Part shown: in pieces, positions 3,477 to 39,483 of the stretch
Layout of the letters: the number at the start of each line of letters is the position of its first letter
Position numbering within the stretch: the stretch's first letter is position 1
From: Candidatus Pacearchaeota archaeon
GTDB lineage: Archaea; Nanobdellota; Nanobdellia; Pacearchaeales; GW2011-AR1
Assembly (NCBI GenBank): GCA_017609205.1
Contig: JAFCEL010000001.1
Location: forward strand, 214,183 to 278,182
Direction of reading: 5' to 3'
Length of the DNA stretch: 64,000 nt
Notes under the pieces: model-generated
What the model saw: only the letters and a program-made list of their open reading frames with translations
Databases searched by the model: none
What the model was told of the DNA's origin: nothing
Program-made: the position numbers and the translations under genes

Positions 3477-5270
3477 TTATTTTCCAATCTCCCTTAATCT
3501 TTTCAAAACATCATCGATTTCGCTTGATTTTTTTACAGGAGTTTTATGAGGAATTCTCGATGATGGAGGAAGAATCCTTCTCGGAGTTGTTCTCGGATGA
3601 ACAGGTCTCAACATTTGACGCGCAAGTCTTGAACCTGGCTTTCCAGGTTTTGTTTTCTTAAATTTGGACTTAAATTTATCATAATAAGGTTTTAACCTAT
3701 CCCTAAATATTATCGCTAATATAAGAAGAATAATCAGAATAATTAAAAGCCAAATCCACCATAAACTCTTTCCCTCTGAAGAATCTTTTTTCATACAACA
3801 AGAATCCCCATAATCACAAGAGTAAGAAGGATTTTCCTCCTCTCCACTCTCACAAGAATAAGGCCTACAAGTTCCTCCATAAGATTCGCAATCTGCTCCT
3901 GATTTTCCTGAACTTTGCTCACACCTTCCTCCAACACAACAAGACTCTCCGTAAGATGCATCAGAAGATTCAACTGTTGTTCCTCCAAGACATATCTCCT
4001 TGGAACTACATATTTTTCCTCCCTGCTTTGAACAGGACTCAAGAGGAGGTTTAGTATCACAGCACATGAAAACTCCTGAGCAAGAATAATCCTTGAGAAT
4101 ATTCCCTTCGCAATTTATCTCAGGCATACAATAATAACCAGCATCCTCACAATCTAAAGAAGAGGATTTTGAAGAATAAGATTTCTTAGGCCAAAGAGAA
4201 TAAAGAAGAAAAGCATTATTTCTTATGTTGCCTCCGTCCCAGCATCCATCTCTTCCCTGAATCTCCAAAAGCCAGTTTTTTGTATTGCTCTTCTCAACAG
4301 GATCTTCATACTGAAAAGGTAAAAGTGCAACTGCAGAATCATAAAATTTATCTCCTGATTCATCCCAGTATTGATTCTTCTGCTTAAGAAGAATGTTTGC
4401 TCTGAAATCAGAAGAGCCAGTGAGCAAATATAAAAATGCTTCTGGAAGAAATTCTTCATTATCTTCATACATAGTTATAAGATAAGGTAAATAAGAAGAA
4501 ACATCATAACCCAAATGGTCAAGGACTAATGTTGCCCATAAACTTCCTTCATAATCACATCTCCCAGATTCTGAGAAACATTTGAAATCGACTTTTTCAT
4601 AAGTTGTTCCTTCTGCTGAAGCAGAAGAAATTGATTCAGAAACATGAATTGTCGAAGAGGTTTTTTTCTTGTATAAAAAAGTCGTCAAAAATTGCTCGTC
4701 GCAGGATATTTCAAAGGTATAATCATAACATGAAGGAGAAACCTTAAGCCACCAATCACCACTTGATAAGCTCAAACAATTTCCAGCAGAAGAACTTAAT
4801 TTCTTATCTTCTCTTATAGTTATTTTATATGATGCTCCTCCATAACTTATTGTGCATCTTGTTTCAGATGGGCTTTCAATTTCTAAATACCACACAATAT
4901 CTTCAGGCGTAGTATTTTTTGTCAAGAGCCAATTCTCTGCATTTAAAGTAGAAGAACCAGCATTATCAAGAGCTAAAATCGCTTGAGCAGTTGTCTTTAT
5001 TTTACAATCAGATTTTGGCCAACACTCATTCTCATTCCATGCATCAGCCAAAACTTCTTCCTTGCACTTTCCTATTGCAAGAAGAGAGAAAATATTATCT
5101 TCTAAAGAAGATGAACAGTCATCCCCAAGTTTTGATTCAAGACATTTATAAGCATCATCCACTTTTGAAGATTCATCGAGGGGATTTGCAGTTTCATTTT
5201 CTGCAAAAATAAAGGGCATAACTAAAAGTGCAAATAGAAAAACCCCTAATAATAACACCTGCTTTTTCAT
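3477..5270 (-). CDS. surface protein with alpha/alpha-toroid (prenyltransferase/terpene-cyclase-like) repeats, three Cys-rich modules, TM helix and basic tail
   Basis: Signal peptide. Repeated '..A.A.LAL...G' and 'DGCWDGGNIRNNAFLLYSLWP'-type helical repeat motifs. Three C..GG..C....C...CC..(G)xC modules. TM 'LWWIWLLIILIILLILAIIF'. Fold assignment by eye only. Confidence 0.5.
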   Translation of the reverse strand: MKKQVLLLGVFLFALLVMPFIFAENETANPLDESSKVDDAYKCLESKLGDDCSSSLEDNIFSLLAIGKCKEEVLADAWNENECWPKSDCKIKTTAQAILALDNAGSSTLNAENWLLTKNTTPEDIVWYLEIESPSETRCTISYGGASYKITIREDKKLSSSAGNCLSLSSGDWWLKVSPSCYDYTFEISCDEQFLTTFLYKKKTSSTIHVSESISSASAEGTTYEKVDFKCFSESGRCDYEGSLWATLVLDHLGYDVSSYLPYLITMYEDNEEFLPEAFLYLLTGSSDFRANILLKQKNQYWDESGDKFYDSAVALLPFQYEDPVEKSNTKNWLLEIQGRDGCWDGGNIRNNAFLLYSLWPKKSYSSKSSSLDCEDAGYYCMPEINCEGNILKDYSCSGVFMCCDTKPPLESCSKQGGKICSSKEICLGGTTVESSDASYGESCCVGGRCEQSSGKSGADCESYGGTCRPYSCESGEEENPSYSCDYGDSCCMKKDSSEGKSLWWIWLLIILIILLILAIIFRDRLKPYYDKFKSKFKKTKPGKPGSRLARQMLRPVHPRTTPRRILPPSSRIPHKTPVKKSSEIDDVLKRLREIGK

Positions 5271-5304: not shown

Positions 5305-6555
5305 CTATTTCTTTTTATGATTTATCAAACTTTTTTTTATTGTATAATTTACAGGGTTTTTTATTTTAACACAGAATTCATCAGGGGCACAAACACCAAT
5401 TCCTTGATAAAATTCCTTACAGTTTGGAGGCATAAGAGGTTTTCTTTTATAACTCCAAGATAGTTGAGATTTTATATAGCCTTCTTTTAAAGGAATCTTA
5501 TTTTTTTTATTCCATTCATAAATTTTCTTTTCTAATTCTTCTCTCTCCATTCCAACAGAACGTAAGAGATTTATCAAGATAAATACAGCCCTTTTCCTAC
5601 CGTCAGAAATCCCACTTAAAATTTTCTTAATACAAGGTGGAAAATTAGAATCAGATAATTTATCAATTTTTACTGGCCTGAAACCAGAGAATTTTTTTTC
5701 TTCCTGCAAATTATTTTCTCTATACCAATCAAGAGCTTGCATTAAAAGTTCTGATGCTTCTCCTTCTTCTACTCGCGGATAAAAATCTCTTACTTTAACT
5801 TTCATAGGATTTGCATCTTTAGGACTAAATTTCTCCAATTCTTCCTCATCAAGAACAACACTAGAAAGTGCAGTTTTCTCATGAAGAGAATAGGGTGTCC
5901 TAAAGAGATGTCTAGGAGAGACAAGAACCAAATCAGGCATTACTTCTTTAGGAGCCTGGAAATTTTTTACATATCTGCTTGGTTTTTCTAAATCAGAAAT
6001 TTTCTCGATTAATTGTTTTTTCGTCCTTTCAATGATATACCGAGTAATTATCCTGGGATAATCAGGAAATTTTTCAGACGTTTTTATTTCATTTATCTTT
6101 TCAGGAAAAGATTTCCAAGGAATTATTATATGGAATCCTTTTGAACCAGAGAATTTTATCCTGAAATTCTTTATTCTATGAAACTTAAGAAGATTGATTA
6201 TCTCTCTTGCCATAATTTTTGAATAATCAAGATATCGGCTGTCAATATCAATTAACAAATCCCATCCAATCCGCAGTTCATTTGCTTGTTGTTCATTCAT
6301 TCCTGTTTGAATTTGCAAAGGATCAGACCAGAGTTCTTCTGAACAATGGAAAGAGGTTGCTCCTTTTTTCACTAATTCAAAAATATCGCCTTGATATTGA
6401 AAATAATCAGGCCTCTTGCCAAAACCCTCAAAGTAGCGAGGGCAAATTTCGCGATGTTTTGAAAATTCAAAGATTGCCTTTTGAACTTCAGGATTAGAGT
6501 AATAAAGAGAAGTTATCTTTCTTATACGCTGCTCTTTTAGAGAATATTCTGACAT
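5305..6555 (-). CDS. priS: DNA primase, fused catalytic subunit PriS plus PriL C-terminal (Fe-S) domain
   Basis: AEP catalytic core 'WDLLIDIDS' and 'FSGSKGFHIIIPW'. C-terminal 'NFPPCIKKIL...GRKRAVFILINLL' matches the PriL/p58 'FPPC' motif, and three further Cys ('PPNC','GVC','EFC') give four candidate Fe-S ligands. Confidence 0.85.
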   Translation of the reverse strand: MSEYSLKEQRIRKITSLYYSNPEVQKAIFEFSKHREICPRYFEGFGKRPDYFQYQGDIFELVKKGATSFHCSEELWSDPLQIQTGMNEQQANELRIGWDLLIDIDSRYLDYSKIMAREIINLLKFHRIKNFRIKFSGSKGFHIIIPWKSFPEKINEIKTSEKFPDYPRIITRYIIERTKKQLIEKISDLEKPSRYVKNFQAPKEVMPDLVLVSPRHLFRTPYSLHEKTALSSVVLDEEELEKFSPKDANPMKVKVRDFYPRVEEGEASELLMQALDWYRENNLQEEKKFSGFRPVKIDKLSDSNFPPCIKKILSGISDGRKRAVFILINLLRSVGMEREELEKKIYEWNKKNKIPLKEGYIKSQLSWSYKRKPLMPPNCKEFYQGIGVCAPDEFCVKIKNPVNYTIKKSLINHKKK

Positions 6556-6625: not shown

Positions 6626-7375
6626 ATGTCTGATTTTGAGATGTTAGTCAAAATAGAGAATCCTCTCACTTTTACAAAAGTAATTGAGATCATATCTGAG
6701 TTGGTCTCAGAAGTAAGAATGAACTTTAATGAATTTGGAATGAGCATTACAGCTATTGACCCTGCAAATGTTGCAATGGTTGGGTTCAGGATTCCAAAAA
6801 GTTCTTTTTCCCAATTTGAAACAGGAGATGAAGTAATAGGAGTCAATTTAGATAATCTTAAGAAGATTATGAAAAGAACAAATTCTGGAAGTTCTGTTAT
6901 ACTCAAAAAAAGAGAAAATCTTCTTGATATAGAAATTCAAGACAGAATAAAAAGAAAATTCAGTTTAAACCTAATTGATATTGAAAATGAAGAAATTGAT
7001 TTTGAAGAAAAAACATCAAGAATGATGTTTAGTTCAAAAGTTGAACTAAATTCTTCAGATTTTATTGATTCCATCGAAGATTGCATTGTTGTTGCAGATG
7101 CATGTTCTTTTATAATTGAAGAAGGCAAATTTATTATTGAAGCAAAAGAAATGAATTCAGCAAGAGCAGAATTTTCTGATGAAGCATTAATTTCAGGCGA
7201 GAATTGTAAATCAAGATATAGCTTAGAATATCTCTCCAAGTTTACAAAAGCATCAAAACTCTGTGACAAAACAAAGATAAGCCTTGCAAATAATCATCCA
7301 CTTAGGATTGATTTCAAGATTAATGCAATTGAATTAAGTTTTATTCTTGCTCCAAGAGTAGAAACAGAAGATTAA
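6626..7375 (+). CDS. pcn: DNA polymerase sliding clamp PCNA
   Basis: 249 aa, the typical PCNA length. 'GMSITAIDPANVAMVGFRIP', 'GVNLDNLKKIMKR' and C-terminal 'LAPRVE' are characteristic. Divergent from the primase gene. Confidence 0.9.
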   Translation: MSDFEMLVKIENPLTFTKVIEIISELVSEVRMNFNEFGMSITAIDPANVAMVGFRIPKSSFSQFETGDEVIGVNLDNLKKIMKRTNSGSSVILKKRENLLDIEIQDRIKRKFSLNLIDIENEEIDFEEKTSRMMFSSKVELNSSDFIDSIEDCIVVADACSFIIEEGKFIIEAKEMNSARAEFSDEALISGENCKSRYSLEYLSKFTKASKLCDKTKISLANNHPLRIDFKINAIELSFILAPRVETED

Positions 7376-7620
7376 AACCGAATCCAGTATAAAAGTGCCC
7401 CTAAATTCCCTAAGAATTCTAAAAACTTGCTATCAGATTCTTTTTTATGAATTTTAAGGGACTCTTCATTAGCAGGAACTGAATAACCCACTGCATTAGG
7501 AGAAACTAATTCATTCTGAAAATTATATGCAGGAGGAGAATGAGTACATCCTCCAAAAAGAATTAATCCAGCCAAAGAAGAAACTACCAACTTATCCTTT
7601 ATTGTTCTCCTCATGTACAT
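7372..7620 (-). CDS. small hypothetical protein with lipobox-like N-terminus
   Basis: 82 aa. 'SLAGLILFGGC' resembles a lipoprotein signal. No other support. Confidence 0.3.
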   Translation of the reverse strand: MYMRRTIKDKLVVSSLAGLILFGGCTHSPPAYNFQNELVSPNAVGYSVPANEESLKIHKKESDSKFLEFLGNLGALLYWIRF

Positions 7621-7708: not shown

Positions 7709-7843
7709 ATGAAAGTTAGAATTTCTGCAACAATAGATAAAGAAACCTTAAAAATTGTAAAAGAATTTCTAGAAAAAGGAACATACAGAAATAAATCACA
7801 TGTTATTGAAGAAGCAATTAAATCCTTGAAGAGAAAGAAATGA
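7709..7843 (+). CDS. ribbon-helix-helix (CopG/Arc-like) transcriptional regulator, 44 aa
   Basis: Not in the ORF track (under 60 aa). My translation is MKVRISATIDKETLKIVKEFLEKGTYRNKSHVIEEAIKSLKRKK, a beta-strand, helix, helix pattern typical of RHH proteins. Its TGA overlaps the next ATG (ATGA at 7840-7843). Confidence 0.6.
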   Translation: MKVRISATIDKETLKIVKEFLEKGTYRNKSHVIEEAIKSLKRKK

Positions 7844-8610
7844 AAAGAGGGCAAGCAACAATTTTTATTATTGGAGGAGTAGTCCTAATAAGCTTTCTAG
7901 TTTTCTTCTTTTTATTTAAGGGAAAAATAATACCTCCAAAACTAGGGAGCAAAGAAACAAACCCCAACCTTTTTCTTGAATCATGTATAGAAAAAAAGAC
8001 AAAAGAAGCAATAAAGATAATGGCTCCTCAAGGAGGGTACATTAATCCTGAATTTAGTTTTAAATTTAAATTTAGCGACGGAGATTTCCAGAATATATCT
8101 TATCTTTGTTATACTCAGAATTATTATATTCCCTGTATTAATCAAGAACCAATGTTAATTGAACATTTAAAAAAAGAGATAAAAGATTATATTGCAGAGG
8201 ATGTTGAAAATTGTTTTGATAGTTTTATTTCTGATTTGAAAGAACAGAACTATGAAGTAAATTCATCATATTCTGGATTTGATATTGAATTAGCCCCTAA
8301 AAAAATCTTAGTTAAGATATACGGAGAAATAATCACTGAGAAAACAGGTGAAACATTAAAACGAGAGAATTTTGAGGTAAGGATTCCTACAAAGATTTAT
8401 GATTTAGCAATTGTTGCTCAAGAAATTATCAGCCAAGAAGCAGAATACTGTCATTTTGACCAAGTAGGATTTATGATTCTGAATCCAAAGTTCGAACTTA
8501 ATAAATTCAAGACAGGAGATTCAGATATAATTTATACAATAATAGATAAAGACAGTAAGGAGGAATTTCGATTCGCAGTGAGAAGCTGTGTGATACCACC
8601 AGGAATGTAA
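7840..8610 (+). CDS. prepilin-like (class III signal peptide) Cys-containing protein, paralog A1
   Basis: 'MKRGQATIFIIGGVVLISFLVFFFLF' is a basic stretch, then RGQ, then a hydrophobic helix. Collinear with 12458-13231 (GG.INP, YLCYT..YY..C, F.FA.RS...PPG). Confidence 0.65.
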   Translation: MKRGQATIFIIGGVVLISFLVFFFLFKGKIIPPKLGSKETNPNLFLESCIEKKTKEAIKIMAPQGGYINPEFSFKFKFSDGDFQNISYLCYTQNYYIPCINQEPMLIEHLKKEIKDYIAEDVENCFDSFISDLKEQNYEVNSSYSGFDIELAPKKILVKIYGEIITEKTGETLKRENFEVRIPTKIYDLAIVAQEIISQEAEYCHFDQVGFMILNPKFELNKFKTGDSDIIYTIIDKDSKEEFRFAVRSCVIPPGM

Positions 8611-11600
8611 TGATGAAAAAGAATATTCTTACAACAACAGTCATATTTCAGATTTTCTTATTAGCAATTACAGTTTTCGCAAATAGCTATAATCTTCATT
8701 CAAGTGATTTAATTCCTGTTGTCTCTGCAGAGGATTCGTTCTCCTGTTGCCCAAAAACAAATGATGGAGCAATTTGTCAGGATGTTTCTTCTGATTATTC
8801 TAACTGTGCTGAAGAACTCCTTCCAACAAAATGCGATTATGTTGCAAAATGTAAATTAGGTTGCTGTATCGACGAAAAAGAAGGCTTATGCACAACAAAT
8901 TCTCCAAAAGGAAAATGTGAAGAAGATGGGGGAATCTGGCAAGAGGATAAAAATTGTAACACATTTGAATGTCAAAAAGGTTGTTGCGTATTAGGTGAAA
9001 AGGTTGAGTTCATTACAGAGGATAGATGCAATAAACTATCATTATTATTTGGATTTGATAAGGATTTCAGGGATTTGGAAACAGAATTGGAGTGTTTTGC
9101 ACTCGAAAAAAGCCAACCTGAGGGAGCATGCATATTTAATGGGGGTGTTTGCAAATTTACCACTGAAAGTGAATGCAGAAAACTAGGAGGAAAATTCTCA
9201 GAAGGCAATCTCTGTTCTAAAGAAAGTTTGAATACTATTTGTGAAAGACAAGCATCTATTGGGTGTGTTGAGGGAAAAGATGAAATTTACTGGTTTGACA
9301 GCTGTGGGAATAAAGAGAATATTTACTCTTCTAATAAAGATGCTTCCTGGAACAATGGAGAAGTTCTAAAAAAAGAAGATAGCTGTGGAGCTGGTTCTTC
9401 AAATATTAATTCAAAATCTTGCGGGAATTGTAACTATTTCCTTGGGAGTAAGTGTGCAGAATCTTCATCAGGAAAAGCCAGAGTCGATGATGGAAATTTC
9501 GTCTGTAAAAATCTGAATTGTATTGACGAGAACGGAAAAGAAAGAGTAAATGGAGAAAGTTGGTGTGTTTATGATTCATTCATTGGAGACGGAAAAGATG
9601 CTGTAGGTTCAAGACACTGGAAAAGAATGTGTATTAATGGAGAGATAAAAGTAGAGCCCTGTGCGGATTATCGTGGGCAAATATGCGTCCAGTCGAATAT
9701 AAACGGAACCGGGAGAAACTTCTCAATAGCTGCTTGTGTCATTAATGAAGCAACAAAATGTCTTAGTTATAATTCTAATCAAGACATGGATTCTTGCAGA
9801 AAGAACGAATATTGTGTTGTTAAAGAGATTAATGTAGACTCTGGTTTTCAATTTGATGTATGCGTGGGAAAATACCCAAAGGGTTTTGACCTGACAGGAG
9901 AGGAATATCTAGAATCGCGGGATATGTGTGGAATAGCGAGCCAAAAATGCGAAGTGCTTTATGTAAAAGATTGGAAAGGGCACTGGAAATGCAAAAAGAA
10001 CTGCAACTGCGAGAGTGAAGAATTTTCAAAGCAAATGAATGATTTGTGTATTTCTCTCGGAGATTGTGGAAGTTACATTAATTATATTGGGGATGGAACA
10101 GACAATTCAGATGTGGAAAATGCTCCTGAAATACCGTGGCAGGATTACAAAAAATTCGCAGAGCCAGTAAAAGGGTTATATGCAGAAGCAAAGGATATAG
10201 AAGAAGTCTTAGAGGTAATTAAAAAAGATTATAGAAAAGATTCTAATGCCAAAGGACAAGAGAAGAATAGTTTTGCAGAAGGAATAAAATTGCTCGGAAC
10301 AATATCAAGTTCCACAGGAAGTCTAATTAGTGGGTTGGCATGGGCTGGAGGATCAGTAAAAATTATTGGGGCAGGACAAACAATACCTTCAGGAGCCCAA
10401 GTTTTAGGAGGGAGTGTGGTTACTGGTCCTGCAGGAGGATCTTCCTTAGTTGCTGGAGAAGGAGGAACATTAGTTGCTACTAAAGGCGCAATAGGAGGTC
10501 AGGGATTGGTTGGAACAACACTCGGTTCTGTAGGGGCTGCTGCAGGGGGAATTGGGATTGGAATGACTGTTGGGTCTTTCGCTGCAAAAGCATTTGGAAT
10601 TAAAGGAAATGCTGCAACATTCTTATCATTAGCAGGGGGAATAGCAGGGGGAATAGCTGGATATGGTGCATTTGCATATAGTGCTGCTTCAACAGCAGCA
10701 GGGGGAGGAGCTGCAGGAGCAGCAGCAGGCTCTAGTGCAGCAGGAGGATTAGGAGGAATCTCTACTTTCGGAGGTTCTTCACTCTTCACAGGATCTTTCG
10801 GACCCATGATGGCAGCATTTGCATGGGCTGTGATTGTTGTTGTCGTCCTAGCAGTTGTTATAAAAATCATTGGTTGGGGGGACACAAAGATAGTCACTGT
10901 TCAATTTGAATGCATGCCATGGGAAGCACCCTTAGGAGGGGATAATTGTAATAAATGCAATGACGATCCCTTGAAACCTTGTTCCAAATATAGATGTGAA
11001 AGCTTAGGACAGGCATGTATATTATTAAATGAAGACACTGAAAATCCTGTTTGTGAAAGCTTGCCAAAAGAAGACAATCCCCCAGTAATTTCTACTGGCG
11101 AGATTCTCGATGATCTCACATTTCTCAATACAGGAGAATCAAAAACAGAGATAAGTGAAATCGGAAAAAAGTGTATTACAGAATTCAAACCTGTTTTGTT
11201 CTCCTTAAATACCGACGAATATGCACAATGCAAGTATAGTTTTGAAAAAACAAAAAATTACGACGAAATGGAGCAATTCCCTCTTGAACAAAATAAATTC
11301 TCAAAGAATCATACATTTGCTTTTTCAATACCAAGTGTTGATAGCCTCAATACTTACAACACTATCAAAAATATCAGTGAAATGTTTTCAGAAATGAATA
11401 TGTATATTAGATGCCAAGATGTTCATGGGAATTATAACAAAGACGAATATACTGTTCATTTCTGCATTAATTCAGGACCAGATATAACCCCTCCTATTCT
11501 CGTTGCTACAAACCCAAAACATAATTCTTATGTCAAATATGGAACAAAAGAAATTCCGGCTGAAATATATCTCAATGAACCATCAGATTGCAAATATGAT

Positions 11601-12413
11601 ACTAGAGATGTAAGTTATGAAGCAATGTCCCATAATATGACTTGCTTTACAGAACTATTGCAACTTACTGACTTTGGCTGGAAATGCTCTACAACATTAA
11701 AAGGTTTCGATAAGGAAGAGAATAAATTTTATATTAGATGCAAAGACCAACCATGGCTTGTCAATGATTCTGTAAAGATAGTAAATGAAAAAACAAATGA
11801 AACAACTTATAAAACAAGAAACGTGAATACAGAAAGTTTTATTTTTACATTGAAAAGTTCATTAAACAAACTAAATATCACCTCCATCTCCCCAAAAGGA
11901 GAGATTAGTGGGGGTTTTGAACCAATAACTGTTGATCTAGAAGTTAAAACTTCTGGAGGCGCAAACAATGGAGAAGCAACATGTTACTACAAATTTTCAG
12001 AGAATGAAACAGAAACATTATTTTTTGATACTTTCTCTAATATTCACAAACAAACATTTAACAGCATGATGAGTGGGAATTATAAAATTTGGGTCAGATG
12101 CGAAGATGATGCAGGAAATATCGCAGAAGATACAACAGAATTTGAATTAAATCTCGATACAAAACCCCCAATAGTTGTGAGAGTGTATTCTGAAGACGGG
12201 AAAATTAGGTTAATAACAAATGAGGAAGCAGAATGTTATTATGATTTTGATAGATGTAATTTTAATTTTGAAAATGCAAGTTCAATGACAAATTTCTTTT
12301 CAAAAGAGCACAAAATAGAAAAAATCTCAGGACAAACCTATTATGTAAAATGTAAAGATATCTGGGGTAATTATGGAAATGGTTGTAGTATCATTATAAA
12401 GACCTTTAGCTAG
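8610..12413 (+). CDS. giant secreted Cys-rich protein B1: Cys-rich N-domain, Gly/Ala-rich hydrophobic region, four C-terminal repeat modules
   Basis: 1267 aa with a Sec-type signal peptide. The N-terminal ~500 aa are collinear with 13232-14701, with matching Cys spacing. Residues 563-757 are Gly/Ala/hydrophobic. The C-terminus has four repeats ending in '(Y/F)xxC.D..GN'. Confidence 0.75.
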   Translation: MMKKNILTTTVIFQIFLLAITVFANSYNLHSSDLIPVVSAEDSFSCCPKTNDGAICQDVSSDYSNCAEELLPTKCDYVAKCKLGCCIDEKEGLCTTNSPKGKCEEDGGIWQEDKNCNTFECQKGCCVLGEKVEFITEDRCNKLSLLFGFDKDFRDLETELECFALEKSQPEGACIFNGGVCKFTTESECRKLGGKFSEGNLCSKESLNTICERQASIGCVEGKDEIYWFDSCGNKENIYSSNKDASWNNGEVLKKEDSCGAGSSNINSKSCGNCNYFLGSKCAESSSGKARVDDGNFVCKNLNCIDENGKERVNGESWCVYDSFIGDGKDAVGSRHWKRMCINGEIKVEPCADYRGQICVQSNINGTGRNFSIAACVINEATKCLSYNSNQDMDSCRKNEYCVVKEINVDSGFQFDVCVGKYPKGFDLTGEEYLESRDMCGIASQKCEVLYVKDWKGHWKCKKNCNCESEEFSKQMNDLCISLGDCGSYINYIGDGTDNSDVENAPEIPWQDYKKFAEPVKGLYAEAKDIEEVLEVIKKDYRKDSNAKGQEKNSFAEGIKLLGTISSSTGSLISGLAWAGGSVKIIGAGQTIPSGAQVLGGSVVTGPAGGSSLVAGEGGTLVATKGAIGGQGLVGTTLGSVGAAAGGIGIGMTVGSFAAKAFGIKGNAATFLSLAGGIAGGIAGYGAFAYSAASTAAGGGAAGAAAGSSAAGGLGGISTFGGSSLFTGSFGPMMAAFAWAVIVVVVLAVVIKIIGWGDTKIVTVQFECMPWEAPLGGDNCNKCNDDPLKPCSKYRCESLGQACILLNEDTENPVCESLPKEDNPPVISTGEILDDLTFLNTGESKTEISEIGKKCITEFKPVLFSLNTDEYAQCKYSFEKTKNYDEMEQFPLEQNKFSKNHTFAFSIPSVDSLNTYNTIKNISEMFSEMNMYIRCQDVHGNYNKDEYTVHFCINSGPDITPPILVATNPKHNSYVKYGTKEIPAEIYLNEPSDCKYDTRDVSYEAMSHNMTCFTELLQLTDFGWKCSTTLKGFDKEENKFYIRCKDQPWLVNDSVKIVNEKTNETTYKTRNVNTESFIFTLKSSLNKLNITSISPKGEISGGFEPITVDLEVKTSGGANNGEATCYYKFSENETETLFFDTFSNIHKQTFNSMMSGNYKIWVRCEDDAGNIAEDTTEFELNLDTKPPIVVRVYSEDGKIRLITNEEAECYYDFDRCNFNFENASSMTNFFSKEHKIEKISGQTYYVKCKDIWGNYGNGCSIIIKTFS

Positions 12414-12428
12414 TCGTAATAAAGAAAA

Positions 12429-12436
12429 TTTATAAA
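12429..12436 (+). promoter_or_regulatory. candidate internal TATA box (TTTATAAA), leaderless-type spacing to ATG 12458
   Basis: TATA consensus 22 nt upstream of the ATG, with no SD in between. Confidence 0.4.
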
Positions 12437-12457
12437 CAAGAGTTATTTAATAGAATT

Positions 12458-13231
12458 ATGACAAATAAAAGAGGACAAATAACTATTTTCATCATTATTG
12501 GAATAATAATTGTAGGTCTTGCTATTGTCATTTACCTTGTGTTCCCTCAAATAAAAACAAAGATAGGATTATCTTCAAAGAACCCTTCTTCTTTTATGCA
12601 GGCATGTATGGAGGATTCAATAAAAGAAACCGTAAAAACAATCTCTTCTAATGGAGGGAGTATTAACCCAAAAAACTATGTGTTGTATAACAATAATAAA
12701 ATAGAATATTTATGTTACACTAATGAATATTACAAAACATGTGTTGTTCAAAGACCCCTTCTTAAAAGACATATTGAAGAAGAAATAGAAAAAGAAATAA
12801 AAGACGAAGCAAAAAATTGCCTTGATAAACTAAAAGAAAATTATGAGAGTAGAGGATATAATGTGAACATAAAAGATGGGAATATTGATGTTGAATTGCT
12901 GCCTGAGATTATTGCAGTAAATTTTAATAATAGTGTTGTTCTTACAAAAGACCCCTCTGAAAAATATGATCTTCTAAGAATTTCTGTCAAAAATAATCTT
13001 TATGAGCTGATTAGTATTGCAAACAGTATAATTCAATGGGAAGCAAGTTATGGCGATGCTGAAACAACAACATACATGAATTATTATCATGATTTAAAAG
13101 TTGAAAAGAAAAAACAATCAGACGGAACAACAATATATATCTTAACTAACAGAAATACAGGAGATAAATTTCAATTTGCATCAAGGAGTTTAGCATGGCC
13201 TCCTGGTTATGGTGCAGAAGGAGTTGCTTAA
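12458..13231 (+). CDS. prepilin-like (class III signal peptide) protein, paralog A2
   Basis: 'MTNKRGQITIFIIIGIIIVGLAIVIYLVF'. Collinear with A1. Confidence 0.65.
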   Translation: MTNKRGQITIFIIIGIIIVGLAIVIYLVFPQIKTKIGLSSKNPSSFMQACMEDSIKETVKTISSNGGSINPKNYVLYNNNKIEYLCYTNEYYKTCVVQRPLLKRHIEEEIEKEIKDEAKNCLDKLKENYESRGYNVNIKDGNIDVELLPEIIAVNFNNSVVLTKDPSEKYDLLRISVKNNLYELISIANSIIQWEASYGDAETTTYMNYYHDLKVEKKKQSDGTTIYILTNRNTGDKFQFASRSLAWPPGYGAEGVA

Positions 13232-14701
13232 ATGAATGAGAAGATTTTAATCTTGTTTGTAGGAATCTTATTAGTTGCAACATTCGTTAGTGCAGAGACA
13301 TCATATTGCTGCGAGAGATTAATCTCAGGGGCATGGTGTCAGAATGCTCCAGAAAGCAGTTGTGACAATAATTATAGGGTTGTTCCTACTTCTTGTGAAT
13401 CCACTTCTTATTGCAAATTAGGAACATGCATTGACAGTGAAGAAGGAACCTGTATAGAGAATACACCTCAGAAAGTTTGTGAAGATTCTAAAGGAGTTTG
13501 GTATGATAAAGATAGTGATGAAGTTCCCCAATGTAACTTGGGTTGTTGTATTCTAGGAGATCAAGCAGCATTTGTTACAAAAACAAGATGTAAAAGATTA
13601 TCCTCGTTGTATGGTCTTGAAACAAATTTCCGGGATGATATTAATGGGGAATTTCAGTGTATTGCAAGCGCGACTTCAGAAGTAAAAGGGGCATGTGTTT
13701 TTGATAGAGAATATGAAAGAACATGCTTAATTCTAACAAAAAAAGAATGTGCTGAGATGCAGATAGCAAATAAAACAGAATTCTATGAAGGAAGATTATG
13801 TTCTGACGAGACTCTTAACACAAATTGCGGACCTTCTGAAAAAACAACATGTGTTGAGGGAAAAGATGAAGTTTATTTCTTAGATACTTGCGGAAATATC
13901 GCGAATATATATGATGCTTCAAAAATAAATGACAAAGAATATTGGGCAAAGATTAAAGATAAATCAGAGAGTTGTAATTATGGTTCTTCAAACGCCAATT
14001 CTGCAACATGTGGAAATTGTGACTATTATCTTGGAAGCACTTGTAAAGATTATAAATTAAATAAGGGGAATAGAAAACCCACTTATGGAACAAATGTTTG
14101 CCAAGACTTAAGCTGTGAATATAATGGGAAAAAATATGAGCATGGAGAAACATGGTGTGCAGAGAGCAAAGGTTCAGAAGACAATCTTCCTGGTTCAAGA
14201 TATTTTAGAATGATATGTTACAATGGAGAAGTAAGTGTTGAACCTTGCGCTGATTTCAGACAAGAGATTTGTATTGAATCAGAAATCGAAGGATTCAGTA
14301 CTGCTGCATGCAGAGTTAACAGATGGCAAGATTGTGTTTCACAAGGAAATTCAAAAGACTGCGAAAATGAAGACAGAAGAGACTGTATTTGGTTGGGAAA
14401 AGGACAGGGATGTGTTCCAAAATATGCCCCTGGATTTAATTTTTGGGAAAGTGGGGATGCTGAATCAATATGTTCGCAAGCAAATATGGAGTGCGAGGTT
14501 GTTTATGAAAAAACATTGGGAGGAGATAAAAAATGTGTGAGTGGATGCGAATGTATTTCAGATTCATGGAAAAGCAAGATGAATCAAATGTGTGTTTCTC
14601 TCGGAGATTGTGGAAGCAGTACAAATTACATTGGAATAAAAGGATATCACGACGAGAATGCTGTTTACTCTGGCACTGCAGATAAAGAAGATAAAGAGTA
14701 A
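13232..14701 (+). CDS. secreted Cys-rich protein B2 (paralog of the B1 N-terminal domain)
   Basis: Signal peptide 'ILILFVGILLVATFVSA|E'. I count about 43 Cys in 489 aa, at positions collinear with B1. The ATG directly follows the A2 stop (TAAATG). Confidence 0.75.
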   Translation: MNEKILILFVGILLVATFVSAETSYCCERLISGAWCQNAPESSCDNNYRVVPTSCESTSYCKLGTCIDSEEGTCIENTPQKVCEDSKGVWYDKDSDEVPQCNLGCCILGDQAAFVTKTRCKRLSSLYGLETNFRDDINGEFQCIASATSEVKGACVFDREYERTCLILTKKECAEMQIANKTEFYEGRLCSDETLNTNCGPSEKTTCVEGKDEVYFLDTCGNIANIYDASKINDKEYWAKIKDKSESCNYGSSNANSATCGNCDYYLGSTCKDYKLNKGNRKPTYGTNVCQDLSCEYNGKKYEHGETWCAESKGSEDNLPGSRYFRMICYNGEVSVEPCADFRQEICIESEIEGFSTAACRVNRWQDCVSQGNSKDCENEDRRDCIWLGKGQGCVPKYAPGFNFWESGDAESICSQANMECEVVYEKTLGGDKKCVSGCECISDSWKSKMNQMCVSLGDCGSSTNYIGIKGYHDENAVYSGTADKEDKE

Positions 14702-14713
14702 TTTAAGTTAAGA

Positions 14714-14721
14714 TTTATAAG
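14714..14721 (+). promoter_or_regulatory. candidate internal TATA box (TTTATAAG), leaderless-type spacing to ATG 14743
   Basis: TATA-like element 22 nt upstream of the ATG. Confidence 0.35.
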
Positions 14722-14742
14722 TTAAAGTTTTCTTTTATATAA

Positions 14743-15234
14743 ATGAAAAAAAAGGGGCAAATGAAATTATCTTTTGGGATGATTTTTACTATTATCCTCA
14801 TTGTCGCGTTTATGGCCTTTGCATTTTATGCTATACAGAAGTTTCTAGGAATGCAGAGAACACTTGAAGTAGGAAGTTTTGCAAGTACTTTCCAAGAAGA
14901 CATTAACAGAATGTGGAAAAGTTCCGAAGGATCCCAGGAAAAAGAATATTATCTTCCAAAAAGAATAGAAAAAGTCTGCATAATTGACTATAGTTCTAAT
15001 TTAAGAGGAAAAAACAAAGAGATTGGAGATAAATTAAAACAAGTCTTTTATGAAAAAGAGAATATATTCTTCTACCCTCTTGGTTCTGCAGAAGGGCTTG
15101 ATGCTTTAGCGATTGAACATCTCGACTTAAAAGAAATAACAAAAGAAGAGAATCCATTCTGTATTGAGAATTCTGGAAAAATAAAAGTAATAATAAAAAA
15201 AGATTATGAAAACTCTCTTGTAATAATAAAATGA
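14743..15234 (+). CDS. prepilin-like protein C
   Basis: 'MKKKGQMKLSFGMIFTIILIVAFMAFAFYAI' is a class III-type N-terminus. Two Cys in the mature part. Confidence 0.6.
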   Translation: MKKKGQMKLSFGMIFTIILIVAFMAFAFYAIQKFLGMQRTLEVGSFASTFQEDINRMWKSSEGSQEKEYYLPKRIEKVCIIDYSSNLRGKNKEIGDKLKQVFYEKENIFFYPLGSAEGLDALAIEHLDLKEITKEENPFCIENSGKIKVIIKKDYENSLVIIK

Positions 15235-16151
15235 ATAAGGGCTATCTTGATTTTTCATTTGCGACGATTTTTGCGATTATTGCAGGTATTTTCATTTTAG
15301 GTCTTGCTATTTATGGTTCGACAAGACTATTAAAGACAGAACAAGAAGTCCAGGATGTAAAAACAGGAAAAGAAATCGGAATCTTATTGAACCCCCTTGA
15401 AATAGGATATGAAACAGGAAAAGTCACTTCTTTTTCTATTCCTGCAGACACAAGAATTTACAATAATTGCAAAGAAGAAGGTGTTTTTGGAAGACAACTC
15501 ATTAAAATATCTCAAAAAAGTTTTGGTAAATGGACTGAAACAGACTTGAACGTTAGTTTTGAGAATAAATATATTTTCTCGAAAAGGCCTGTTGAAGGAA
15601 AAGAATTCTACTTATTCTCAAAACCATTTGAATTTCCATTTAAAGTCAGTGACCTGATTTACATGACTTCTGCGAAAGATTCTTATTGTTTTGTGAACCC
15701 CCCAGAAGAAGTTAGAGGTGAATTATCTTCATTAAACCAGAAGAATATTTTTCTAGATAATTGTTCAGAAGAGAGTACAATAATTTGCTTTAATGAATTT
15801 GAAGACTGCGACGTAAAAATCAATTATGAAGAGGGTTATTTAAAAAAGAATAATAACGTTCTTTATTTCAAAGGAGATGCCTTAATGTATGCAGGTGTTT
15901 TTTCTGATGCTGGGAGTTATGAGTGTCAATTAAAGAGATTAATGAAAAGAGTGGGAGTATTAGCCCAAGTTTACTCTGATAAAGCTAATTTTGTCTCAAG
16001 AAGAGGATGTAATTCAAATTTAAATGAAGATTTGCTTAGATTAATTAACTTTTGCAATAATTTCAAAGATTCATCAGAGATAAAATTAGTTGCCAAGATT
16101 TCAGAGGAAATACAAAATAAAAATAAATTTGCAGAGTGTAAATTATGGTAA
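15231..16151 (+). CDS. prepilin-like Cys-rich protein D
   Basis: 'MNKGYLDFSFATIFAIIAGIFILGLAIYG'. ATGA overlap with C. About 10 Cys. Confidence 0.6.
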   Translation: MNKGYLDFSFATIFAIIAGIFILGLAIYGSTRLLKTEQEVQDVKTGKEIGILLNPLEIGYETGKVTSFSIPADTRIYNNCKEEGVFGRQLIKISQKSFGKWTETDLNVSFENKYIFSKRPVEGKEFYLFSKPFEFPFKVSDLIYMTSAKDSYCFVNPPEEVRGELSSLNQKNIFLDNCSEESTIICFNEFEDCDVKINYEEGYLKKNNNVLYFKGDALMYAGVFSDAGSYECQLKRLMKRVGVLAQVYSDKANFVSRRGCNSNLNEDLLRLINFCNNFKDSSEIKLVAKISEEIQNKNKFAECKLW

Positions 16152-16675
16152 AGGAAAAATCAATCCGAGCACAAGTAAAAATCCAACAGATGCTTTTCAT
16201 GCTATTAGCAATAACTTTATTTTTTGTACTTGTTGGAATTTTCTTGATTGTTATTGGTTTTTCAGGGTTGAAGGAATCTGCCATTGAATTGCAAGAAAAA
16301 AATTCACTCTTATTAGTTACTAAACTTGCCAACTCACCTGAATTCTCGTGTGGCGAATCATTTGGAAGCAATAAAATAAATTGTATCGACGGAGATAAAA
16401 TTATGATGCTAAAAGAGAACAGTGAAAAATACAAGAATTTTTGGGGAGTATCCAATATTGAAATAAGAAAAATTTATCCAGAAACTGATGGAAAGAAAGA
16501 ATGCACAATTAATAACTATCCTGAATGTAATATTATGAAAATTTACTCAAAAGAAAGTTTGGGTGTAGATGTCTCAAATTTTGTAACATTATGCAGGAAA
16601 GAATTATCATTGGGGGGCGGTAGTTATGACAAATGTGAGATCGCTAAAATGATTGTTCGTTATGAATTAGAATGA
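16145..16675 (+). CDS. prepilin-like/signal-anchored Cys-containing protein E
   Basis: '..IRAQVKIQQMLFMLLAITLFFVLVGIFLIVIGF'. 7-nt overlap with D. Paired Cys ('FSCGESFGSNKINC', 'KECTINNYPEC'). Confidence 0.5.
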   Translation: MVKEKSIRAQVKIQQMLFMLLAITLFFVLVGIFLIVIGFSGLKESAIELQEKNSLLLVTKLANSPEFSCGESFGSNKINCIDGDKIMMLKENSEKYKNFWGVSNIEIRKIYPETDGKKECTINNYPECNIMKIYSKESLGVDVSNFVTLCRKELSLGGGSYDKCEIAKMIVRYELE

Positions 16676-17154
16676 AAAACAAAAAAGGACAGGAAGAATT
16701 CGTAGGTTTTGGTCTGATAATAATAGTCGTAGCAGTAATATTATTGATTTTTCTAAGTTTTGTTCTTAAAAAAAATTCACAAAAAGAGTATGTTGAAAGT
16801 TATGAAGTTGAAAGTTTTATACAATCAGCTCTTCAATATACTACAGACTGCGAAGACAATCTTGAATTTCTGTCAATCCAAAAAGTTATCTTCAGTTGTA
16901 TTGACAAAGAAACTTGTTTAGATAAAAGAAGTAGCTGTGATGTATTAAATGAAACCTTAAAAGAAATTGTTGAAAAAAGTTGGAGAGTTGAAAAAGGAAG
17001 TACAATCCAAGGATATAAAATGCAGATTATAGATGGCGAGCAAGAAATTATTAGTATAAAGAAAGGGAATGAAACAAAGAATAATAAAGGTTCTAAACAA
17101 CATTTTAGCAGAGGGGGTAATGAAGTAGAAATCTCTTTTACTGTATATTATTAA
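16672..17154 (+). CDS. prepilin-like protein F
   Basis: 'MKNKKGQEEFVGFGLIIIVVAVILLIFLSF'. ATGA overlap with E. Cys cluster 'FSCIDKETCLDKRSSC'. Confidence 0.6.
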   Translation: MKNKKGQEEFVGFGLIIIVVAVILLIFLSFVLKKNSQKEYVESYEVESFIQSALQYTTDCEDNLEFLSIQKVIFSCIDKETCLDKRSSCDVLNETLKEIVEKSWRVEKGSTIQGYKMQIIDGEQEIISIKKGNETKNNKGSKQHFSRGGNEVEISFTVYY

Positions 17155-17495
17155 ATTTTTATATTAATTATTATTGAATCTACAATAATTTTTGGCCTAT
17201 GTCTAATTCTCTTGCCTTCTTTTTCTTCAACAAAGGAAATAAAACCAAATCTCTCTAGCAATTTTACATCATCAAAAACAGATTTGAAATTTCTGCCTAG
17301 AATTTTAGCAAGAGAATAGATTGAATCTGGATTTTGATTTTTTATCGTATCAAGAATTCTTGCTTTTTCATTGCTTAGAAGATTCCTTATAGCAGAAATT
17401 CCTGAAAAATCATAATCTTTTTTTGAAGTTCCCTTTTTTCTAAATAAATTGAAGGTTCCTTTTGAAAGAGTAATTATCAATTCTCGTTTAGCCAT
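17151..17495 (-). CDS. winged-helix transcriptional regulator (predicted)
   Basis: 114 aa. 'RILDTIKNQNPDSIYSLAKILGRNFKSVFDDVKLLERFGFISF' looks like helix-turn-helix plus wing. Its 3' end overlaps gene F by 4 nt, convergent. Confidence 0.5.
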   Translation of the reverse strand: MAKRELIITLSKGTFNLFRKKGTSKKDYDFSGISAIRNLLSNEKARILDTIKNQNPDSIYSLAKILGRNFKSVFDDVKLLERFGFISFVEEKEGKRIRHRPKIIVDSIIINIKI

Positions 17496-20601: not shown

Positions 20602-21171
20602 ATGCGAAGAATTATTTCAAAAGAGGAGGAAAAAAAGAAAAGAAAAAGAAAGCAATTGATTGTTGGACTTGTCCTTATTATAGTCATGCTCGGAAGCACT
20701 TTTGGCATAGTTGTTAATTCTTTTGGAAAGAAGAAAAATTCCGACGAGAAAATAATATATAATAATGTTGAATTTGAAAGACAAGGAAACTACTGGAGTA
20801 CGAGGCTAGGAGAAAAAATTTTTATTTTTAGATACAATCCTAAAGAAGTTCTTTTTATTCCTGGTTATGTTAAAAGCTTTAGTGATTACGCTGGAAAACC
20901 ATTATATATTTATTCTGAAAGTGAAGGTGCAGAACTAGAAATATATAGAAATTTTCAGAATATCGTTCAGAGAATGCAGAAAGCTTGTTATAAGGAATGC
21001 GAAGAAGATTTGCCTATCAAAAACTGCGATAATAATTTCATAATAATTCAAAATTCCAGCATTGTAAATATTGTGCAAAATAAAAGCTGTGTTTATATCA
21101 CAGGACCAGAAGAAAACCTTACCCAAATTACTGACGAATTTTTATTTAAGGCTATAGGGATAGAAAAATAA
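20602..21171 (+). CDS. N-terminally anchored extracytoplasmic protein (hypothetical)
   Basis: Lys-rich N-terminus plus TM 'LIVGLVLIIVMLGSTFGIVV'. 'YNNVEFE' and 'FRYNPKEV' recur in the next gene. Confidence 0.5.
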   Translation: MRRIISKEEEKKKRKRKQLIVGLVLIIVMLGSTFGIVVNSFGKKKNSDEKIIYNNVEFERQGNYWSTRLGEKIFIFRYNPKEVLFIPGYVKSFSDYAGKPLYIYSESEGAELEIYRNFQNIVQRMQKACYKECEEDLPIKNCDNNFIIIQNSSIVNIVQNKSCVYITGPEENLTQITDEFLFKAIGIEK

Positions 21172-21211: not shown

Positions 21212-21946
21212 ATGGTCGAGAAGAAAAAAATTTCCAAGCAAAGTTCCAAAAAGGACAAAGAAAAAGTCTGTGAGATTTTTGAAGTTGAAAGCAGAAAAGG
21301 AAATAAAAAGATTGTTAAAAGTTGCGGAGAGATTGATGAAAAAAAATCTAATGAAAAAGAAATTAAAGAACAAAATAAAATTTTAAAAAGAGTTCTAATT
21401 GGAATAGGATTATTTATTGTTTTCTTTATTGCCTTATTTCTATGGATTGATTCTGTTCGCCATTTTAATTATAGGGGTGTTGAATTTGAAATTGTCAAAG
21501 AGGGTAAATTAATACTCTATAAGACAACTCTCCCTGTTTACTATCAAGGGGGGATAAGAGATTATAATTTTTATTTGAGAAAAGATCCCAGGAAAATTGA
21601 TGAAAGTGTTCAATTTAATGGAGAAATACGGCTTCTTAAAAATCTCGTCGTTAACTCAAGTGATTTCAAATGTGATGGAGACGAAATTATAGCCCTTGCA
21701 AACTTAGTGAAACTCTATGATGTTCTCGGCTCAAAAGTTATTAAAGACCCAAATGCAACCTGCGATAAATTAGGAAGATATGCATATATAACTATAAAAG
21801 ACGGCAATGAAACAAAAATTACAGAAAAAAGTATTGCATGTTATGATATCGAAGTCAGTAATTGTGAGATTCTGGAAGCAATTGAGAGATATATGACTGA
21901 AACCTTTGTTGAAGTGAATAAAATCAAGGCATCTCTCTCTTCCTAA
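21212..21946 (+). CDS. N-terminally anchored extracytoplasmic protein, distant paralog of 20602-21171
   Basis: Lys/Glu-rich N-terminus, TM 'VLIGIGLFIVFFIALFLWI', then 'YRGVEFE' and 'FYLRKDPRKI'. Confidence 0.5.
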   Translation: MVEKKKISKQSSKKDKEKVCEIFEVESRKGNKKIVKSCGEIDEKKSNEKEIKEQNKILKRVLIGIGLFIVFFIALFLWIDSVRHFNYRGVEFEIVKEGKLILYKTTLPVYYQGGIRDYNFYLRKDPRKIDESVQFNGEIRLLKNLVVNSSDFKCDGDEIIALANLVKLYDVLGSKVIKDPNATCDKLGRYAYITIKDGNETKITEKSIACYDIEVSNCEILEAIERYMTETFVEVNKIKASLSS

Positions 21947-22523
21947 AGTAATAAAATAAAGAGATAATTACAGCAACTGAAAGGGCTGCTATTGTTATCA
22001 AAAGTTTAAGAATTGGATTAATTTCACTCCCAAAAAAGAACCCTACTAAAATTAAAAATAATACCCAAATTCCTGCACCAAGAGATGTGAAAAAGATAAA
22101 CTTCGGAAGATTCATTCTGGAAAAACCAGCAGGTAGAGAAATAAACTGGCGAATAACCGGAATTAACCTTCCTACAAAGATAATTATCTCTCCGTATTTT
22201 GCAAAATAATAATCAGATTTTTTTATTTTTTGATGTGTTATAAAGAAAATCCTTCCATACTTGTGAACAAGAAAATCAATTGTTGTTCTTCCTAAATAAA
22301 AAGCGAGAAAGTAATTGATAAGCGCTCCTACCAAACTACCCAGAACTCCTGCTAGAAAAACAAGGAGAAAATTCATTTCTCCACGAGCAATTAATGCTCC
22401 TGCTGGAATCATGATTACTTCACTTGGAAAAGGAATAAAAGAACTCTCAATAGTCATTCCAATAAAAATTCCAAGATATCCTAATTTATTGATAATTAAT
22501 AAAAAAGCATTCAGAAAATTCAT
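21924..22523 (-). CDS. DedA/SNARE-associated family membrane protein
   Basis: 'LGYLGIFIGMTIESSFIPFPSEVIMIPAG' and 'RLIPVIRQFISLPAG' are typical DedA motifs. Confidence 0.75.
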   Translation of the reverse strand: MNFLNAFLLIINKLGYLGIFIGMTIESSFIPFPSEVIMIPAGALIARGEMNFLLVFLAGVLGSLVGALINYFLAFYLGRTTIDFLVHKYGRIFFITHQKIKKSDYYFAKYGEIIIFVGRLIPVIRQFISLPAGFSRMNLPKFIFFTSLGAGIWVLFLILVGFFFGSEINPILKLLITIAALSVAVIISLFYYFRKREMP

Positions 22524-23035: not shown

Positions 23036-23064
23036 AAGATTCTAAAAAAAAGAAGTTTAAATTT

Positions 23065-39343: not shown

Positions 39344-39356
39344 GGATTTATATAAA

Positions 39357-39451
39357 CGCCGCCGCCAGGAATCGAACCTGGATGCCCAAAAGGGCCCCGG
39401 TTTCTCGAAGAGAGACTCAAGCCGGGTGCAGTACCATTGTGCCACGGCGGC
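39357..39451 (-). tRNA. tRNA-Ser (anticodon UGA) with a 14-nt intron at 37/38
   Basis: Reverse complement folds as acceptor GCCGCCG/CGGCGGC, anticodon stem CCCGG/CCGGG, loop CTTGAG|intron|A, long variable arm GCCC-TTTT-GGGC, T-arm CCAGG-TTCGATT-CCTGG, discriminator G. Confidence 0.8.
39402..39415 (-). other. tRNA intron (TCTCTCTTCGAGAA) at the canonical 37/38 position
   Basis: 21 nt lie between the two halves of the anticodon stem; removing 14 nt restores a 7-nt loop. Confidence 0.65.
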
Positions 39452-39483
39452 ATATTTATAAAACCAATCAAGAAGTTTTAAAA

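Follow-up and report, generated by a model that had tools for sequence, protein, structure and literature searches.

A conserved Pacearchaeota gene cluster for prepilin-like and cysteine-rich surface proteins, a candidate apparatus for cell contact

We analyzed a stretch of 64,000 nucleotides from a Candidatus Pacearchaeota archaeon (contig JAFCEL010000001.1, positions 214,183 to 278,182; the window), and in it a cluster of nine co-directional genes at positions 7709–17154 of the window: a small RHH regulator gene followed by A1, B1, A2, B2, C, D, E and F (Table 1). Six of the encoded proteins have prepilin-like N-termini and the two B proteins are large and cysteine-rich. The cluster is real and conserved across Pacearchaeota-type DPANN archaea, and we consider it a strong, though unproven, candidate for the apparatus with which these tiny cells contact other cells.

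The genes are tightly packed, and the reading frames, coordinates and junction types given in the original prediction, which had been made from the sequence alone, all agree with the open reading frame (ORF) coordinates. ATGA junctions lie at 7840–7843 (read directly), 15231–15234 and 16672–16675, and a TAATG junction with a 1-nucleotide overlap at 8608–8612; A2 and B2 are directly adjacent (13231/13232), and D and E overlap by 7 nucleotides (16145–16151). Only two intergenic gaps occur within the cluster, 44 nucleotides before A2 and 41 nucleotides before C, and each contains a TATA-like box whose end lies about 22 nucleotides before the ATG, as predicted, and whose start lies 29 nucleotides before it. 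Across the window, about 18 of 43 genes checked have a TATA-like box starting 25–29 nucleotides upstream of the start codon, against a background of 0.004 per nucleotide, which implies mostly leaderless mRNAs for this genome. Starts with such a box include 3369, 5270, 6555 and 30955 on the minus strand and 20602, 21212, 24843, 37385, 56961 and 58430 on the plus strand. The six internal genes of the cluster have no box at this distance in the window-wide scan. Because the spacing recurs as a genome-wide pattern and boxes are absent before the internal genes, the three units proposed originally, RHH-A1-B1, A2-B2 and C-D-E-F, with leaderless transcription, are a plausible and reasonable reading of the sequence.

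Table 1. Genes and promoter-like elements of the cluster and its two downstream neighbors. Coordinates are window positions; a slash in the N-terminus marks the predicted cut; aa, amino acids.
Feature	Coordinates	Strand	N-terminus	Basis or remark
RHH (CopG-type) small regulator, 44 aa	7709..7843	+		First gene of unit 1; Pfam RHH_1 E 2e-4, above cutoff
A1, prepilin-like, 256 aa, globular ectodomain of ~225 aa	7840..8610	+	MKRG/QATIF	N-terminus
B1, surface protein, 1267 aa	8610..12413	+		Signal peptide, Cys-rich ectodomain, hydrophobic region, immunoglobulin (Ig)-like repeats
TATA-like box TTTATAAA	12429..12436	+		Starts 29 nucleotides 5' of the A2 ATG
A2, prepilin-like, 257 aa, core copy of the A family	12458..13231	+	MTNKRG/QITIF	Homologues, motif, model
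B2, secreted, 489 aa, 43 Cys, core copy of the B ectodomain	13232..14701	+		Homologues, conserved Cys
TATA-like box TTTATAAG	14714..14721	+		Starts 29 nucleotides 5' of the C ATG
C, small prepilin-like, 163 aa	14743..15234	+	MKKKG/QMKLSF	Motif in 35 orthologues
D, prepilin-like, 306 aa	15231..16151	+	MNKG/YLDFSF	Motif in 32 orthologues
E, small prepilin-like, 176 aa	16145..16675	+	MVKEKSIRA/QVKIQQ	Motif; Q in 30/31 orthologues
F, small prepilin-like, 160 aa	16672..17154	+	MKNKKG/QEEFVGF	Motif in 30/30 orthologues
Winged-helix regulator (HVO_A0114 family), convergent	17151..17495	-		PF25212 E 3e-16; neighbor, membership not claimed
S-layer-like secreted protein, 884 aa	17861..20515	+		Conserved synteny; neighbor, membership not claimed

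A1, A2, C, D, E and F share one N-terminal layout, consisting of 4–9 mostly basic residues, [KR][GA], a glutamine (tyrosine in D) and a hydrophobic 20-mer with a mean Kyte-Doolittle hydropathy of 1.8–2.9. The original prediction had described these starts as [KR]-G-Q, K-G-Y or R-A-Q followed by about 20 hydrophobic residues; all six are present, and they are unique in the window. When all 64 kb were scanned in six frames for [KR][GAS][QAYFLE] followed by a hydrophobic 20-mer, with an upstream start codon, exactly these six genes came back along with four irrelevant matches (two short ORFs in antisense and internal transmembrane segments within two other proteins), so the pattern is not due to chance. 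The single-pass proteins encoded at 20602–21171 and 21212–21946 lack the junction motif. Since the TATA-like boxes fix the ATGs of A2 and C, the leaders of these two proteins are 6 and 5 residues long, as is typical for archaeal prepilins.

We then compared the junction among orthologues drawn from 80 GTDB species loci (30–85 per family). A lack of a conserved site in homologues, named originally as the sign of plain signal anchors, was not what the alignments showed: the junction is conserved in the orthologues of all six proteins and sharply bounded, with leaders that vary in length and sequence and a G, A or S at position −1. Glutamine occupies +1 in 48/48 A1, 85/85 A2, 30/31 E, 30/30 F and 28/35 C sequences, and D has Y, A or F there. 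Taking the A family as a whole, Q at +1 and F at +5 are found in 133 of 133 proteins; the A1 motif is K[RK][GAS]/QVTIF (Q and F in 48/48), and Q7 and F11 are invariant in the A2 alignment. The corresponding motifs are K[RK][GA]/[QA]M[KQE]LSFGMIF for C, K[KR][GA]/[YAF]L[QE]ISFxWLF for D, K[KR][AGS]/Q[ML]KIQQMAF for E and K[KSR][AGS]/QEEMVGF for F, the last with Q, E, E, G and F in 30 of 30 sequences. By hhalign, A1 and A2 are homologous over their full length (100%; 30% identity, E 9e-37), C and D are related over the N-terminal 80 residues (95%), and the remaining family pairs have at most the N-terminal helix in common. Sharing of the N-terminal segment alone resembles the pattern seen among pilin families.

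Behind these N-termini lie ectodomains that all carry conserved cysteines, as anticipated for every mature domain. Orthologue alignments identified four invariant cysteines in A, two in C, six in E and four in F, and six invariant plus two nearly invariant cysteines in D. The AlphaFold model of A2 (pLDDT 87) consists of a helix at residues 5–28, a low-confidence linker at 30–39, a second helix at 43–65 and an alpha/beta domain. Profile searches of the PDB with alignments of A, B, C, D, E and F returned nothing, and no description of the cluster families was found in Pfam, NCBIfam, the PDB or the searched literature. The statement that the eight proteins belong to no characterized family thus stood up to Pfam, NCBIfam, PDB profiles and Foldseek on two models, none of which gave a significant match. 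Two other assignments of A were discarded: a thiol-disulfide oxidoreductase is out, as there is no CxxC motif and the four conserved cysteines are spread apart, and the name "YceG cell division protein", carried by one A2 homologue at JGI, was set aside because no model supports it.

The two B proteins had both been described as Sec-signal proteins with about 9% cysteine, which is correct for B2 (8.8%) and not for B1, where cysteine amounts to 5.2% overall and a strong hydrophobic segment lies at residues 725–762. B2 has a Sec signal, about 41 of its cysteines are invariant or nearly so, and its AlphaFold model (pLDDT 77) is a chain of small beta-rich disulfide modules. Foldseek searches with this model against the PDB and BFVD gave marginal matches to vWC/EGF-like mini-modules (E > 0.04) and none to a fusexin/HAP2 class II fold, a viral fusion protein or a pore-forming toxin. 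The B proteins likewise have no Pfam match to the beta-propeller or vWA domain of PilY1, and the B2 model no such Foldseek match. A precomputed Pfam Copper-bind annotation (PF00127, cupredoxin) on a 585-residue B2 homologue (P0223) is the sole Pfam annotation among the 240 homologues listed.

B1 is built in a more complex way. Its signal peptide is followed by a Cys-rich ectodomain (38–500; residues 38–494 are 39% identical to B2), a charged linker, a hydrophobic region (555–762) and a C-terminal half (~760–1267). By hydropathy, a Gly/Ala-rich hydrophobic stretch of about 170 residues, a segment that B2 of the window lacks, ends in the strong transmembrane segment 725–762. Residues 1–500 hold 45 cysteines, 500–760 none and 760–1267 21. 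The C-terminal half consists of four tandem C-x-Y...C-x-D-x-x-G-N repeats with one cysteine pair each and has sub-threshold Ig-like Pfam matches only (Big_13/Y_Y_Y). Because every repeat has its own cysteine pair, this half is most likely extracellular, which would imply a hairpin anchor with two ectodomains; B1 thus appears to be membrane-embedded rather than simply secreted. In related loci, a separate gene, B2', is homologous to B1 residues 764–1267. It follows B2 in 34 of 37 loci with enough flank and is missing in the window and its closest relatives; examples lie at 12564–14789 of locus L001, at 12500–14947 of L003 and in about 75 other loci. Many B2' N-termini read [KR]G/A-L-A-L-S-Q-I, class III-like in look, and B1 N-termini share an I-F-Q-I core.

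The families of the cluster are widespread. A2 has 1446 homologues, the best 120 at 59–67% identity, and B2 has 1841, the best 120 at 53–74% identity; essentially no entry in these two sets of 120 is named as anything but "hypothetical". Searching exhaustively with a profile of the A family yielded 550 representatives (50% identity clusters) at E ≤ 1e-30, of which the few named ones are from Nanoarchaeia. A or D relatives are encoded in the genomes of 176 GTDB species and on at least 385 stretches of metagenome sequence. Across about 160 loci of metagenome-assembled genomes labeled Pace- or Woesearchaeota, we found the recurrent order PCNA-[A1 B1]x0-2-A2-B2-B2'-C-D-E-F-HTH (helix-turn-helix)-S-layer-like gene. 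More fully, two secreted proteins (−), primase (−) and PCNA (+) precede A–F, and the HTH gene (−) and S-layer-like gene (+) follow. As proposed, the cluster is lineage-specific, and it is strongly syntenic.

Variation within this order is modular. A and B almost always form an adjacent pair, present in one to three copies per locus, with no extra A-B module in 16 loci, one in 37 and two in 1. At least 10 loci of other species likewise have the RHH gene, at 58–73% identity, immediately before their first A gene. At least four of the GTDB loci, and a few contigs from metagenomes, have the A-B part apart from the C-F part, a separation that agrees with separate promoters. Additional (third) A-like genes stand after B2' in L099 (6111–9467) and L141 (near 5893). 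The one in L099 precedes an unrelated 670-residue secreted protein and a 202-residue protein with no Pfam matches, and on this ground the A family may pair with more than one kind of cargo. Inserts include nucleotidyltransferase/HepT-type toxin-antitoxin genes between B2' and C (L003, 15018–15624) and an ORF of 120 residues between A2 and B2 (L072, 10743–11105); small inserts are therefore tolerated at unit boundaries.

The GC content is 31%, the same in the cluster as in its surroundings, and the archaeon has PCNA, FtsZ, a primase of the fused kind and a ribosomal operon of archaeal type. The DPANN affiliation suggested originally was borne out as Pacearchaeota-type by a pacearchaeosortase (NF033505, E 4e-61) and by the PACE-CTERM protein that it targets. 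The cluster sits in a cell-envelope island composed of the S-layer-like gene, the pacearchaeosortase/PACE-CTERM pair and an AglB glycosylation cluster. The winged-helix regulator follows F in nearly all loci that extend so far. The 884-residue S-layer-like protein has no Pfam match itself, and its L003 orthologue matches PF05124 (S_layer_C). About 5 kb downstream of the cluster, at 22520–24732 on the minus strand, the pacearchaeosortase gene lies directly downstream of that of its presumed substrate, a putative S-layer protein of 555 residues that matches the PACE-CTERM model (NF033506, E 5e-110), contains CARDB and fn3 domains and is a second S-layer candidate in the island. The NF033506 model matches only 23065–24732, and A–F, B1 and B2 have no match to it. 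Just past the 3' end of the window lies an N-glycosylation island (L084, 11021–20987) with AglB/STT3, a number of glycosyltransferases (GT1, GT2, GT4), PMT_2 and methyltransferases.

Upstream, two minus-strand genes at 1948–3369 (473 residues) and 3477–5270 (597 residues, 30 cysteines) encode proteins with a Sec signal, a C-terminal transmembrane segment and a basic tail. They have no family matches, occupy the same place beside the primase in most related loci and may be part of the same surface repertoire. The primase gene itself (5305–6555, minus strand, 416 residues) matches the small and large primase families, corresponding to a fused PriS-PriL, and lies beside PCNA in all related loci. 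Between PCNA and RHH, an ORF of 82 residues (7372–7620, minus strand) carries LILFGGC, which resembles a lipobox, at its N-terminus; it is a called gene on the source contig. At 39356–39452 (minus strand), ARAGORN reported a 97-nucleotide tRNA-like gene with an undetermined four-base anticodon (ctct), which may be intron-containing or otherwise unusual.

Our favored reading, which we hold with evenly balanced confidence, is that the cluster encodes a disulfide-rich surface complex, specific to Pacearchaeota-type Nanoarchaeia and similar to type IV filaments, in which the adhesin units are modular. Its cleavage, co-assembly, A-B pairing, adhesive role and filament or host-attachment nature are all predictions from sequence. 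In outline, the five families A, C, D, E and F would be made as prepilins, which a class III signal peptidase would cut after [KR][GAS], exposing Q (A/Y in D) at +1 of the hydrophobic helix. Bundled together, these helices could form a short stem, a heteromeric pseudopilus or tip-like structure. C-D-E-F may constitute its four-member minor-pilin-like core, which can be likened to the four minor pilins in bacterial type IV pili and type II secretion systems (T2SS). Every A would act as a pilin-like adaptor coupling one large partner B to the stem, and the B proteins would be the disulfide-rich, adhesin-like working end that contacts a host cell or surface, with B2 soluble and B1 and B2' held in the membrane via the Gly-rich hydrophobic segment and bearing Ig-like repeats. 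The peptidase and any ATPase or platform would be encoded elsewhere in the genome.

Several observations point in this direction. All six N-termini have the class III layout, which no other gene of the 64 kb shows, conservation sets in abruptly at the predicted cut, and the families, like pilins, have only the N-terminal segment in common. Conserved cysteines in all ectodomains, together with the one cysteine pair per Ig-like repeat of B, argue for an extracellular location. The adjacency of A and B genes and the L099 A-like gene before an unrelated secreted protein suggest an adaptor-plus-cargo module. A surface role fits the position in the cell-envelope island and the reported firm host attachment, Pacearchaeota having been found enriched in a large-cell size fraction, which suggested strong attachment to hosts (bioRxiv 10.1101/2020.05.14.094862).

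Other results weigh against a type-IV-filament-like complex. Pilin and class III hidden Markov models (HMMs), proposed originally as a check, gave no significant match to 132 N-terminal segments or to full-length proteins: the full-length cluster proteins match no pilin or class III model of Pfam or NCBIfam, and Pfam Class_IIIsignal (PF04021) matched 4 of the 132 segments with a best E of 0.55, the matches being otherwise transmembrane noise. Foldseek found no pilin fold for the A2 model in the PDB (best E 0.009, TM-score 0.12), and in that model the N-terminal helix appears set off from the next helix by the low-confidence linker. The cluster contains no major-pilin candidate, and the hydrophobic anchor in B1/B2' is less suited to a distal pilus tip than to a complex bound to the membrane.

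The same holds for the assembly machinery, for which we covered the window and 10 kb on each side, about 84 kb of the 511-kb contig. Among all ORFs of the window of at least 400 residues and all its multi-pass membrane ORFs, scanned or annotated on the source contig, there is no T2SSE-type ATPase, T2SSF/FlaJ/TadC platform or A24 peptidase, so the absence of such genes from the 64 kb, claimed at the outset, was upheld. Pfam/NCBIfam annotation shows no ATPase, platform or A24 peptidase within ±10 kb of the window either, and machinery annotation is absent from the window's ribosomal-protein stretch on its own contig. Motif scans of the flanks of about 160 related loci revealed no Walker A of the type IV filament (TFF) kind and no A24-like GxGDxK motif, and loci with C-F apart from A-B likewise have no machinery motif in their flanks. 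In addition, according to one preprint, DPANN genomes lack the components of type IV pili. We gave this statement little weight because it probably rests on bacterial models or families and because other papers report TFF genes in these archaea, including TFF systems 1 and 4A in DPANN (system 1 per bioRxiv 10.64898/2026.04.22.720090) and FlaI/FlaJ/pilin-like genes in Woesearchaeota (PMC6642349).

These results lend themselves to the principal rival explanation, in which the six N-termini are uncleaved type II signal anchors, the K-G-Q junction serves topology or helix packing, and the proteins form an envelope complex unrelated to type IV filaments, under or within the S-layer, e.g. for S-layer anchoring or envelope scaffolding. 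The missing pilin HMM and fold matches, the lack of TFF machinery in every flank examined and the flexible linker behind the A2 transmembrane helix are what such anchors would lead one to expect, as are the membrane-embedded B1/B2' proteins and the constant adjacency of the S-layer-like and other envelope genes. Nevertheless, uncleaved anchors leave unexplained an invariant small −1 residue and a +1 glutamine in five ectodomain families that have variable leaders and little more than an N-terminal segment in common, as well as the lack of the motif in the other single-pass proteins of the window. On balance we regard this explanation as unlikely, though clearly the one to be taken most seriously after our own.

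A second alternative is a device for penetrating a host membrane, in which a stem of A and C-F would drive B through the S-layer and the Gly/Ala segment of B would insert into the host as a bridge or pore. The long hydrophobic region of B1 between two ectodomains invites this idea, as do the minimal metabolism of Pacearchaeota, whose cells are apparently firmly host-attached according to the literature, and the conservation of the cluster in every sampled related genome. Against this, the B2 model matches no fusexin/HAP2, viral-fusion or pore-toxin fold, the hydrophobic region is more simply the membrane anchor of B1 itself, and B2 of the window is entirely without a hydrophobic segment; we therefore judge such a device to be rather improbable. 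A related notion, a pilin-like disulfide-rich spike that dispenses with canonical type IV machinery, uses an unrecognized mode of processing and assembly and bridges into the host membrane through the Gly-rich segment of B, seems to us similarly doubtful.

A bindosome-like layer for nutrient capture, as known for Sulfolobus sugar-binding proteins, would account for class III-like signals on large globular domains (A ~225 residues, D ~270 residues), and known substrates of that kind are typically encoded apart from their machinery. However, A–F contain no substrate-binding domain by Pfam/NCBIfam, the loci whose gene order was examined contain no ABC transporter, and the giant Cys-rich partners have no counterpart there, making a nutrient-capture role very unlikely. 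Finally, the small RHH regulator at the cluster head and the toxin-antitoxin and nucleotidyltransferase genes occasionally found inside the cluster in relatives could be taken as signs of mobile-element, viral or defense cargo rather than a core cellular structure, a negligible prospect that we exclude because the synteny is fixed between PCNA/primase and the S-layer-like gene in about 160 loci, with no B relative on IMG/VR viral contigs and a GC content equal to that of the surroundings.

Few uncultured archaea are as reduced or as abundant as Pacearchaeota. Within a contig of about 0.5 Mb, which may be most of the genome, the cluster takes up about 9.5 kb, and it offers a concrete candidate set for their attachment apparatus. 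On the favored reading of a type-IV-filament-like surface complex, it would extend the archaeal type IV filament world by several protein families; if the genomes hold no peptidase, it would represent a new use of the prepilin-like N-terminus.

Among known systems, the Epd pili of Methanococcus maripaludis (TFF system 1; EpdA-E and EppA), whose pilins are cut before Q +1 by EppA, resemble the cluster in their short basic leaders and Q +1 cut, in requiring several minor pilin-like proteins together, in their adhesin-like accessory proteins and in belonging to a system reported in DPANN. The cluster differs in that its proteins match Class_IIIsignal/DUF361 neither by sequence nor by HMM, in that the locus has no ATPase, platform or peptidase and no short major pilin, and in its much larger disulfide-rich ectodomains and giant Cys-rich partners. 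In architecture, with no homology implied, a parallel may be drawn to the minor-pilin tip complexes with PilY1 of bacterial type IVa pili and T2SS, such as fimU-pilVWXY1E and the three alternative clusters of Myxococcus xanthus. Both combine four coupled small pilin-like genes in one operon with a large Sec-dependent adhesin-like gene beside a pilin-like partner, and both show duplicated modules. Here, by contrast, B has neither a beta-propeller nor a vWA domain, there is no conserved E at +5, B1 and B2' are membrane-embedded, and the context is archaeal. The Sulfolobus bindosome (Bas system) likewise comprises large globular class III-signal proteins encoded away from the assembly machinery, whereas substrate-binding and ABC-transporter domains are absent here. 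The TFF loci of Thermoproteales (subclades 4B/4E) encode pilins rich in cysteine along with S-layer-like proteins and putative adhesins (Makarova et al. 2016, PMC4858521). They are similar in their multiple small pilin-like proteins, in their large proteins with signal peptides, in having conserved cysteines throughout and in being associated with an S-layer-like gene. Those loci hold an ATPase and TadC, no sequence relationship with the present cluster was detected, and the lineage here is DPANN, mesophilic and of 31% GC. The principle of prepilin-like N-termini on surface proteins was known already, whereas the protein families, their folds, the modular A-B organization and the fixed genomic position in Pacearchaeota are new.

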